A model generated the notes under the pieces. That model did not search any database. It worked only from the letters and a program-made list of their open reading frames with translations, and was not told the origin of the DNA. A DNA stretch of 8,624 bases. Source: a virus (lineage: Monodnaviria > Loebvirae > Hofneiviricota > Faserviricetes > Tubulavirales > Inoviridae). A program made the translations under genes and the position numbers. How positions within the stretch are numbered: the first letter of the stretch is position 1; every line of letters begins with the position of its first letter. Below are positions 7,468-8,624 of this stretch, piece by piece. Location: the IMG/VR virus record IMGVR_UViG_2541047910_000001. One strand, 5' to 3'.

Positions 7468-8262
7468 ATGAAGCCAGAAAAAGCTATCGAGATATTAAAA
7501 AGACAACGGGAGCAAATCCCAGCAATACAAAATGAACGAAGGAGTACAGGAAATAACCCAAGTTTTAACTTATGGCAAAGAAACACTAAGACCGCCATAT
7601 CAAAAATATTTGGTGAAGAGTCAGATCACAAAAAAGAATTTGGCTCAATTCGATACTCTTTAATGGCATTTGTTGGTGATACACCAGATTATGTTTTCGA
7701 TAACGCATTTTGTAGTGGTTTAGATGAAGCACATTCTCTTCTTACGTCTATGATTGCTGAGATTGAAGAATATGGAATTGACGGAAATTTCATAGAGACA
7801 AAAAATGATCCCGTAGCTCTTGTTGAACTAATTTGCCATCAATTTCATAAGGTTGCAAGACAGCTACAGCAACGACACGATAATAGACAAACCATTGAAA
7901 TAAATGACGAATATGACGTTCAGGATTTATTTCATGCTCTTTTGAAGATTCATTTCGAGGATGTCAGACCAGAAGAATATACGCCAAGCTATGCAGGATC
8001 TTCAACACGAGTTGACTTCTTGTTAAAGAATGAAAAAATCATTATCGAGTTAAAGAAAACGAGAAAAAATCTCAAGCAAAAAGAAGTTGGTGAGCAATTA
8101 ATTGTTGATATAGCTCATTATCAAACGCATCCTGATTGCGAAACTTTAGTGTGTTTTGTATATGACCCTGAAGGTAGAATTGCCAATCCAATTGGTGTGG
8201 AGAATGACCTTGAGCGTTGTACAAATTCAATTTCGGTAAAAGTAATAATCTCACCAAAATAA
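7468..8262 (+). CDS. Hypothetical protein with C-terminal PD-(D/E)xK nuclease-fold motif; candidate defence or toxin nuclease
   Basis: Good SD (gaggaaag) upstream; helical N-terminal region, then motif block EYDVQDLFHALL ... STRVDFLLKNEKIIIELKK (D183 at 8014-8016, E194 at 8047-8049, K196 at 8053-8055) ... QLIVDIAHY, the classic restriction-endonuclease-like D-x(n)-E-x-K arrangement; gene is markedly AT-rich. Confidence 0.6.
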   Translation: MKPEKAIEILKRQREQIPAIQNERRSTGNNPSFNLWQRNTKTAISKIFGEESDHKKEFGSIRYSLMAFVGDTPDYVFDNAFCSGLDEAHSLLTSMIAEIEEYGIDGNFIETKNDPVALVELICHQFHKVARQLQQRHDNRQTIEINDEYDVQDLFHALLKIHFEDVRPEEYTPSYAGSSTRVDFLLKNEKIIIELKKTRKNLKQKEVGEQLIVDIAHYQTHPDCETLVCFVYDPEGRIANPIGVENDLERCTNSISVKVIISPK

Positions 8263-8272
8263 AAGGACATAT

Positions 8273-8539
8273 ATGGCTACTGTAGATGATGTTGCACAAT
8301 GGATGAAATCAGAGCTGGAAAACACAAACTGGCTATATCAAGAAACTGTTGTATATAAAATAAAAGAGTTATTTGGCGATACTTTCGTATATTTGAATGC
8401 TAATGGAAATTTATCCATTGATAAAAAAGTATTAGCGAAGTTTAGAAAGCTAACTAATGACACGGTTATATGGGAGAGAGGTGAAAAAGCATGGCGAAAA
8501 AGACAAGGTTATGATGCCCCTGGTCGACAGCAGGACTAA
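8273..8539 (+). CDS. Small hypothetical protein co-transcribed with the nuclease-fold protein; possible partner, immunity or antitoxin component
   Basis: 88-aa ORF starting 10 nt after the upstream stop, with AAGGA 5 nt before the ATG; basic C-terminus (KAWRKRQGYDAPGRQQD); same AT-rich composition; followed by the terminator. Confidence 0.55.
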   Translation: MATVDDVAQWMKSELENTNWLYQETVVYKIKELFGDTFVYLNANGNLSIDKKVLAKFRKLTNDTVIWERGEKAWRKRQGYDAPGRQQD

Positions 8540-8545
8540 ATAATT

Positions 8546-8572
8546 GGTTCGCACAATGACGTTATGCTAAAG
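8546..8572 (+). other. Degenerate dif-like sequence (XerC-arm-like, 5-nt spacer, XerD-arm-like)
   Basis: ggttcgcacaa matches GGTGCGCATAA at 9/11 and ttatgctaaag matches TTATGTTAAAT at 9/11, but the spacer tgacg is 5 nt rather than the canonical 6. Confidence 0.3.
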
Positions 8573-8573
8573 A

Positions 8574-8609
8574 GGCCGCTGCGGGATTCGATTTTCGCAG
8601 CGGCCTTTT
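8574..8609 (+). terminator. Rho-independent terminator of the plus-strand accessory operon, embedded in a longer imperfect inverted repeat
   Basis: Perfect 10-bp GC-rich stem ggccgctgcg/cgcagcggcc (8574-8583 and 8596-8605), 12-nt loop, then TTTT (8606-8609). The repeat extends to 22 nt per arm (8562-8583 vs 8596-8617, 19/22 matching). Confidence 0.65.
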
Positions 8610-8624
8610 CAACATAACGAGTCG

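Follow-up and report, generated by a model that had tools for sequence, protein, structure and literature searches.

Type II toxin-antitoxin modules are also known with reversed gene order, such as those of the higBA and hicAB type, and Panacea (DUF4065) is a hyper-promiscuous antitoxin domain. The DUF6953 gene described in this study resembles the reversed-order modules in coding for a small protein within about 10 nt behind the gene of a potentially toxic enzyme, and it resembles Panacea in that a single small domain neighbours effectors of many unrelated families. Unlike in toxin-antitoxin modules, the nuclease encoded upstream is often intact without DUF6953, and DUF6953 is highly conserved and often solitary.

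The nuclease EcbAgaN is an effector which is autoinhibited by its own N-terminal domain and assembled into a non-specific DNase by a separate sensor, the long-B Argonaute (PMC13535254). The nuclease domain PF18742 has furthermore been given as an alternative Detocs effector (bioRxiv 10.1101/2023.01.24.525353). Among the filamentous prophages, CUS-1 and YpfPhi carry a variable att-proximal ORF pair beyond the repressor, 'with no predicted functions' and without database homologues (PMC4266046). The accessory ORFs in the slot that corresponds to the one described here are orf1 and orf1a in CUS-1 and YPO2271 and YPO2272 in YpfPhi.

The filamentous prophage and its cargo slot

The window, i.e. the whole stretch of 8,624 nucleotides that was analysed (IMG/VR: IMGVR_UViG_2541047910_000001), corresponds exactly to a single unit of a CUS-1/YpfPhi-like Inovirus prophage at dif. 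This is seen from its set of Pfam genes, its RefSeq annotation, its position beside hipBA and its inverted dif-like sites. Secretin, Zot/pI, DUF2523, pIII-like, coat, G5P and G2P genes are found on the minus strand, and an RstR-like HTH repressor, a 140-aa membrane protein, the nuclease and DUF6953 are encoded on the plus strand (Table 1). An rstR homologue is located at the corresponding position in YpfPhi (PMC4266046). The prophage has the same phage backbone as CUS-1 and YpfPhi, is likewise integrated at dif beside hipBA and also has a variable slot near att that lies beyond the rstR-like repressor.

Table 1. Features of the plus strand between the repressor and the end of the window.
Feature	Position	Strand	Basis or remark
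RstR-like HTH repressor	6432-6878	+	Pfam HTH_3, phrog_3557; first gene of the rightward string that ends with DUF6953
140-aa multi-pass membrane protein	6978-7400	+	phrog_4174, no Pfam; upstream of the nuclease
264-aa nuclease-domain protein	7468-8262	+	PF18742, PADLOC, alignment, PDB match, AF2 model
Intergenic gap AAGGACATAT, 10 nt, with Shine-Dalgarno AAGGA	8263-8272	+	Sequence
DUF6953 gene, 88 codons	8273-8539	+	ATG 8273, TAA 8537-8539
Phage attachment region	8546-8624	+	Shared junction, ssDNA fold

DUF6953 ends the plus-strand gene string, and attP follows it. In the attachment region, positions 8546-8572 form a dif-like site and positions 8573-8605 a GC-rich hairpin; a second, inverted dif-like site runs over the end of the window into positions 1-15. 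The two inverted sites, GGTTCGCACAATGACGTTATGCTAAAG and, across the window ends, AACATAACGAGTCG joined to TACATTATGCGCACC, lie around a GC hairpin of 10-11 bp. They are merely dif-like, the canonical E. coli dif site being absent within 3 mismatches. As single-stranded DNA the region folds into a forked hairpin (z = -5.3 to -6.3), similar to the CTXphi-type attP(+) substrate of XerCD. The junction between tandem copies and that with the chromosome, beside hipA, have in common the 102 nt after the DUF6953 stop codon. An excisionase-like (Xis) role for DUF6953, suggested by the proximity to attP, was set aside, as most family members are found outside phages.

The prophage is present at 99-100% identity in 24 complete genomes of E. 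coli, where the copies lie at the dif locus by hipBA and are sometimes in tandem. In the chromosome of E. coli 1410D004 tandem copies are located at dif by hipBA, one of which has a truncated secretin pseudogene. The prophage is also integrated in a Klebsiella pneumoniae plasmid (NZ_CP132684.1, 71-79 kb; IncFIB/IncHI1B), with identical nuclease and DUF6953 proteins; evidently the phage also uses plasmid Xer sites. The att/hairpin segment of about 72 nt (8541-8616) on its own is found in about 640 E. coli records with 90-93% identity, mostly plasmids, in up to 16 places per genome. It may be a widespread plasmid Xer (cer-like) site or a scar of filamentous phages.

In two sibling E. coli prophages (L099 and L100), the repressor, the 140-aa gene and attP are 96-97% identical to those of the window. 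In the slot corresponding to positions 7401-8539 (2085-3014 in L099 and 2108-3199 in L100), one other gene replaces the nuclease and DUF6953, either AbiJ_NTD4-DUF7014 (PADLOC: PDC-S32) or a gene for an unknown 363-aa protein. A defence or exclusion role of the cassette would fit its position in this att-proximal slot, a hot spot of cargo exchange, and the AbiJ-like gene in the sibling slot. The 140-aa membrane protein gene is kept in both siblings with the other cargo. In an unrelated inovirus, the gene for a 36%-identical homologue of the membrane protein (L108:3793-4176) follows that of a 57%-identical nuclease after 9 nt.

The upstream nuclease

The 264-aa protein has a helical N-terminal domain (residues 1-102) and a C-terminal alpha/beta PD-(D/E)xK domain of the DpnII/MboI type (residues ~115-264), which matches REase_DpnII-MboI (Pfam: PF18742) with an E-value of 6.9e-59. 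Its catalytic residues D183, E194 and K196 are conserved and form invariant columns of the alignment. The protein matches the PADLOC model Aga_Helical-REase (E-value 1.3e-34) and EcbAgaN in the PDB (E-value 2.8e-4). The match to PADLOC PDC-S35 covers the N-terminus only (residues 1-107 on profile positions 1-103 of 264, E-value 3.6e-11). Foldseek with the nuclease model against the PDB gave no match at E <= 0.001 and no significant match to the whole protein. Like bAgaN (EcBPAN) and the Detocs REase, the protein combines a helical N-terminal domain with a PF18742-type nuclease domain, but its N-terminal domain is unrelated to theirs beyond being helical.

A restriction-modification reading of the nuclease was rejected, since the 8.6-kb prophage has no methyltransferase ORF or domain, and PF18742 is thus found here without the cognate methyltransferase of DpnII/MboI type II systems. 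The nuclease domain is homologous to that of the long-B pAgo BPAN effectors, but neither the window nor the chromosome flanking it has an Argonaute gene. The kinase or phosphotransfer genes of Detocs are likewise absent from the window. The 264-aa protein therefore belongs to none of these three systems. Full-length relatives with more than 50% identity are found in Proteobacteria, Bacteroidota and Paenibacillus. The nuclease family is usually stand-alone, and stand-alone copies are present on E. coli plasmids of about 35 kb.

The DUF6953 gene and its junction with the nuclease gene

The TAA stop codon of the nuclease gene occupies positions 8260-8262 and is directly followed by AAGGA (8263-8267), or AAAGGA when the final A of the stop codon is included. 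The duplex energy with the anti-Shine-Dalgarno sequence is -5.3 kcal/mol and the spacing to the ATG at 8273 is 5 nt. The 10-nt gap with a Shine-Dalgarno sequence inside, which the preliminary description had pointed out, is indeed present. In the homologous pairs the gap measures 10-11 nt in E. coli, Salmonella and the metagenomic locus L029, and 16 nt in Pectobacterium brasiliense. The GC contents of the two cargo genes are 35.2% and 36.0%, compared to 41.6% in the phage backbone (181-6260); that of the 140-aa membrane protein gene is 47.5%. The low GC content suggests that both cargo genes were acquired separately from the phage backbone.

The nuclease and DUF6953 genes are likely co-transcribed. 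Their co-expression, as had been proposed, is near-certain because of the 10-nt gap, the shared low GC content and the conservation of the junction in relatives. The preliminary description had gone further and called the small gene translationally coupled. Folding of the junction RNA gave no structure that sequesters the Shine-Dalgarno sequence and none beyond that of shuffled sequence (z = +0.8); therefore, close co-transcription is evident, and strict translational coupling is something we infer. Promoter-like sites were no more frequent in our scan than in shuffled sequences, so that no cassette-specific promoter can be assigned, and neither an operator nor a promoter-like site above chance was found near the DUF6953 gene.

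The C-terminal tail had also been described as basic. Residues 61-88 have a pI of 8.2 and include a local WRKR cluster; the 88-aa protein as a whole is only marginally basic and near neutral (pI 7.9, 14 K/R versus 13 D/E).

Family, conservation and predicted fold of DUF6953

The suspicion that the small protein belongs to an uncharacterised DUF family proved right. It matches DUF6953 (Pfam: PF22266) with 98.9 bits and an E-value of 1.8e-28, well above the curated gathering threshold of 27 bits, with residues 3-75 aligned to profile positions 1-73 of 74. It also matches PHROG 10782 (E-value 1.3e-40), and the exact 88-aa protein is named 'DUF6953 family protein' in RefSeq. The gene is thus already catalogued in RefSeq and Pfam, and what this analysis adds is its context. 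Pfam assigns no function to the family, our literature search found no mention of it, PADLOC has no model for it and NCBIfam has none for the 88-aa protein, the nuclease or the membrane protein. A PADLOC match of the 88-aa protein to MTase_II is weak (E-value 0.0098) and probably spurious. Neither tblastn with the 88-aa protein nor megablast with the whole window found a match in the phage collection.

A word-indexed search with the 88-aa protein found 91 single-domain homologues of 86-99 aa, and the exhaustive profile search gave 1181 DUF6953 clusters at 50% identity. In a codon-level comparison of nine 88-codon homologues, dN/dS is 0.08-0.16 (around 0.1) where synonymous sites are unsaturated; in the remaining pairs these sites are saturated and pN is only 0.09-0.25. 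Together with the Pfam match this agrees with the earlier expectation that the ORF is conserved as coding: it is a genuine gene under purifying selection and not a chance ORF.

The model of the 88-aa protein is a confident single-domain winged helix. Its predicted secondary structure consists of helix 4-18, strand 20-22, helix 23-34, strands 39-41 and 47-49, helix 51-61 and the wing strands 65-68 and 73-76. The invariant residues of the family cluster in helix 3, in the wing (IWERGxKxWRKR) and in the C-terminal tail (YDAPGRQQ here, YDxPGRQQ in the family). They are retained from E. coli to Saccharibacteria-like metagenome-assembled genomes, whichever gene is the neighbour, and this independence favours a universal ligand over a co-evolving partner.

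The top structural matches of the model are DNA-binding regulators, namely F-112, PF0095, PadR and the wHTH domains of BrxR and CapW. The PDB sequence search with the DUF6953 profile returned nothing credible, and Foldseek with the model against BFVD gave no match at E <= 0.001. Sequence identity of DUF6953 to the small viral winged-helix DNA binders (F-112 of SSV1 and F93 of STIV) and to the wHTH domains of BrxR and CapW is only 6-13%. Two features set DUF6953 apart from these proteins: the conserved C-terminal tail and an additional beta-hairpin, which lies between H2 and H3. In contrast to BrxR and CapW, it has neither a WYL nor another ligand domain and is not located upstream of, or divergent from, the system.

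Genomic neighbours of DUF6953

A DUF2158 gene is located directly upstream of DUF6953 in 18 out of 50 distinct loci, with spacings from an overlap of 11 nt to a gap of 17 nt. Overlapping DUF2158-DUF6953 pairs are also found on plasmids of Phaeobacter, Cupriavidus, Thiothrix and Aeromonas. The gene that follows the pair varies and encodes Abi_alpha/PDC-S47, a Cap15-like 2TM/beta-barrel protein, DUF3644 or unknown proteins of 294, 373 and 503 aa. Further neighbours on plasmids are an 'abortive infection family protein', AIPR, Mrr_cat, TatD and HNH. Besides adjacent genes, there are also fusions in which DUF6953 is combined with another domain: TIR-DUF6953, PIN_8-DUF6953 and DUF2158-DUF6953. Clear fusions to an effector or partner number only three among the 150 best representatives. 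Most of the other 'long' representatives were rejected as fusions, their extensions being of low complexity or disordered or their N-termini probably mis-called.

The prophage copy of Salmonella enterica (L101) is 92.6% identical over 2.1 kb. Here 253 nt are inserted after the DUF6953 stop codon and before the dif-like site, and they carry a 67-aa DUF2158 gene (L101:4321-4524), so that the gene order is nuclease-DUF6953-DUF2158. No DUF2158 was found in the E. coli window.

DUF6953 also occurs without these partners. In two tailed prophages, that of Tatumella (L103:4001-4267) and L002 (L002:6001-6267), it is a solitary, oppositely oriented insertion between terminase or, in L002, terminase-like genes; in both loci neither the nuclease nor DUF2158 is found nearby. 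In the Saccharibacteria-like group its neighbours resemble housekeeping genes. On some plasmids DUF6953 is found alone, and the family is widespread outside phages. The Tatumella and Saccharibacteria-like cases are compatible with a function unrelated to adjacent effectors.

Co-occurrence of the nuclease and DUF6953

The nuclease-DUF6953 pair was found only in Enterobacterales (E. coli, Klebsiella, Salmonella and Pectobacterium). It recurs in Salmonella, in the metagenomic locus L029 and in Pectobacterium brasiliense in differing genomic settings. In the Pectobacterium pair the nuclease domain is 79% and DUF6953 77% identical, and the N-terminal domain of the nuclease is unrelated.

Many related nucleases are encoded without DUF6953. 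The closest other nuclease, P0094, is 85% identical over its full length and has an intact D/E-x-K motif; it is encoded at the same Pectobacterium site, where DUF6953 is lacking and a convergent gene follows after only 46 nt. None of the viral loci found with the nuclease at up to 58% identity has DUF6953 within the flank. DNA homologous to the nuclease domain was detected in 257 of 5426 E. coli genomes and DUF6953-like sequence in only 25, so that about 230 E. coli genomes have related nuclease-domain DNA with DUF6953 undetectable by blastn. In Citrobacter the nuclease is found alone, and in another inovirus it is followed by a membrane protein. The 140-aa membrane protein may be the more regular companion of the nuclease.

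Conversely, an intact nuclease is present in only about four of the 50 distinct DUF6953 loci, and in most lineages outside this group DUF6953 is accompanied by quite other genes. A frameshifted nuclease relic lies upstream of an intact DUF6953 gene in Morganella morganii (L014-L016:4816-4983), and a truncated nuclease in a Pectobacterium inovirus (L013:4763-4984). These relics comprise 50-73 aa of the nuclease C-terminus, and the DUF6953 gene behind them still has a good Shine-Dalgarno sequence. The nuclease family, with at least 3617 members in the homologue search, is far larger than DUF6953.

In the preliminary description the two genes had been taken as a possible toxin-antitoxin or nuclease-immunity pair. 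They are adjacent, co-oriented and closely spaced as in such pairs, with a 10-nt gap that holds the Shine-Dalgarno sequence and gaps of 10-16 nt in homologous pairs. Consistent co-occurrence across genomes was not found, the pair being restricted to Enterobacterales, and P0094 and the stand-alone plasmid nucleases suggest that the nuclease can be sustained without its neighbour. The proposed pairing is therefore not supported; its co-occurrence check was run and non-co-occurrence was largely found. DUF6953 is probably not a dedicated antidote for the nuclease, because joint inheritance of the two genes is confined to a narrow enterobacterial group, and the link between them is non-obligatory.

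Possible roles of DUF6953

We tentatively propose, from sequence comparison, the structure model and the gene context, that DUF6953 could be a nucleic-acid-binding accessory subunit, either a sensor or regulatory, of modular mobile defence cargo. According to this proposal, the nuclease and DUF6953 would have been imported together as low-GC cargo of the filamentous prophage, and DUF6953 would close the lysogeny-side operon, directly behind a putative abortive-infection-type nuclease. Helix 3, the wing and the tail would recognise a ligand common to all hosts, either a universal host factor or, most plausibly, a feature of nucleic acid. DUF6953 would then gate or target whichever effector adjoins it or is fused to it: the nuclease in the window and elsewhere Abi_alpha, Cap15-like, DUF3644, TIR or PIN proteins, usually together with DUF2158. 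The partner-independent surface, the promiscuous pairing, the TIR and PIN fusions and a nuclease that is viable without DUF6953 favour such a generic accessory module over a cognate antitoxin. Further support comes from the block of nuclease domain and DUF6953, which is kept in Pectobacterium despite the swap of the N-terminal domain, from the AbiJ-like gene in the slot of the sibling prophages, and from the documentation of PF18742-type nucleases as immune effectors. The E. coli cassette without DUF2158 speaks against this reading. Moreover, DUF6953 may add nothing to the nuclease, most homologues of which would work without it.

A somewhat doubtful alternative is that DUF6953 is a small winged-helix transcription factor, which tunes or represses the cargo operon or its neighbours by operator binding and has no contact with the nuclease, similar to the controller protein of a restriction-modification system or the DNA-binding half of an antitoxin. 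The winged helix itself, the DNA-binding regulators among its top structural matches, and its occurrence as a small, single-domain protein, often in tight operons with small partners, are in agreement with this. However, DUF6953 is the last gene of its operon, neither divergent nor first, and the scan for operators and promoter-like sites nearby found none above chance. Moreover, a DNA-contacting surface that is near-invariant across phyla with unrelated neighbours would be unusual for an operator-specific repressor, and the TIR and PIN fusions suit a sensor better than a repressor.

Another scenario, which we likewise consider somewhat doubtful, extends the proposed accessory role. DUF6953 and DUF2158, both small proteins, would make up the conserved core of a hitherto undescribed modular conflict system with interchangeable effectors, comprising the DpnII/MboI-type nuclease, Abi_alpha, the Cap15-like membrane effector, DUF3644, TIR and PIN. 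The full form would be present in the Salmonella copy and a reduced one in the E. coli cassette, and filamentous phages at dif and plasmid Xer sites would be the vehicles among Enterobacterales.

It is unlikely that DUF6953 is a hitch-hiking moron with a self-contained role (anti-defence, host modulation or DNA-architectural near att) which, with or without DUF2158, merely shares cargo hot spots with defence genes. Its stand-alone insertion in the Tatumella prophage, its position next to terminase-like genes in L002, its presence alone on plasmids and as the last gene before attP in the window, and the very heterogeneous neighbours in a slot that is a hot spot of cargo exchange would all be expected of such a gene. 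On the other hand, the block of nuclease domain and DUF6953 is kept across E. coli, Salmonella and Pectobacterium despite the N-terminal domain swap and differing insertion contexts, the TIR and PIN fusions argue for a functional tie to effectors, and the spread of the family outside phages argues against an att-specific role.

Finally, it is improbable that DUF6953 is an antitoxin or immunity protein which neutralises the nuclease at fixed stoichiometry or, as a variant, a promiscuous Panacea-like neutralising domain: the gap of 10-16 nt is conserved in four enterobacterial lineages, intact DUF6953 genes beside decayed or truncated nuclease genes look like orphan antitoxins, and DUF6953 adjoins many putatively toxic effectors, with TIR and PIN fusions as in fused toxin-antitoxin proteins, but intact nucleases lack DUF6953 (the 85%-identical P0094, the viral loci at up to 58% identity and the ~230 E. 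coli genomes by blastn), the related EcbAgaN is autoinhibited by its own N-terminal domain (PMC13535254), and DUF6953 is highly conserved without co-evolving with its partners and is also found alone or beside housekeeping-looking genes.

Implications for the family and its prophages

The context found here could give DUF6953 a testable function. If the module does not act as a sensor or gate, the finding would be an ordinary pair of neighbouring cargo genes. If it does act as a sensor or gate for effectors, DUF6953 would be a new small-protein component of the bacterial immune repertoire, and the fitness effects attributed to CUS-1/YpfPhi-like prophages would have an explanation.
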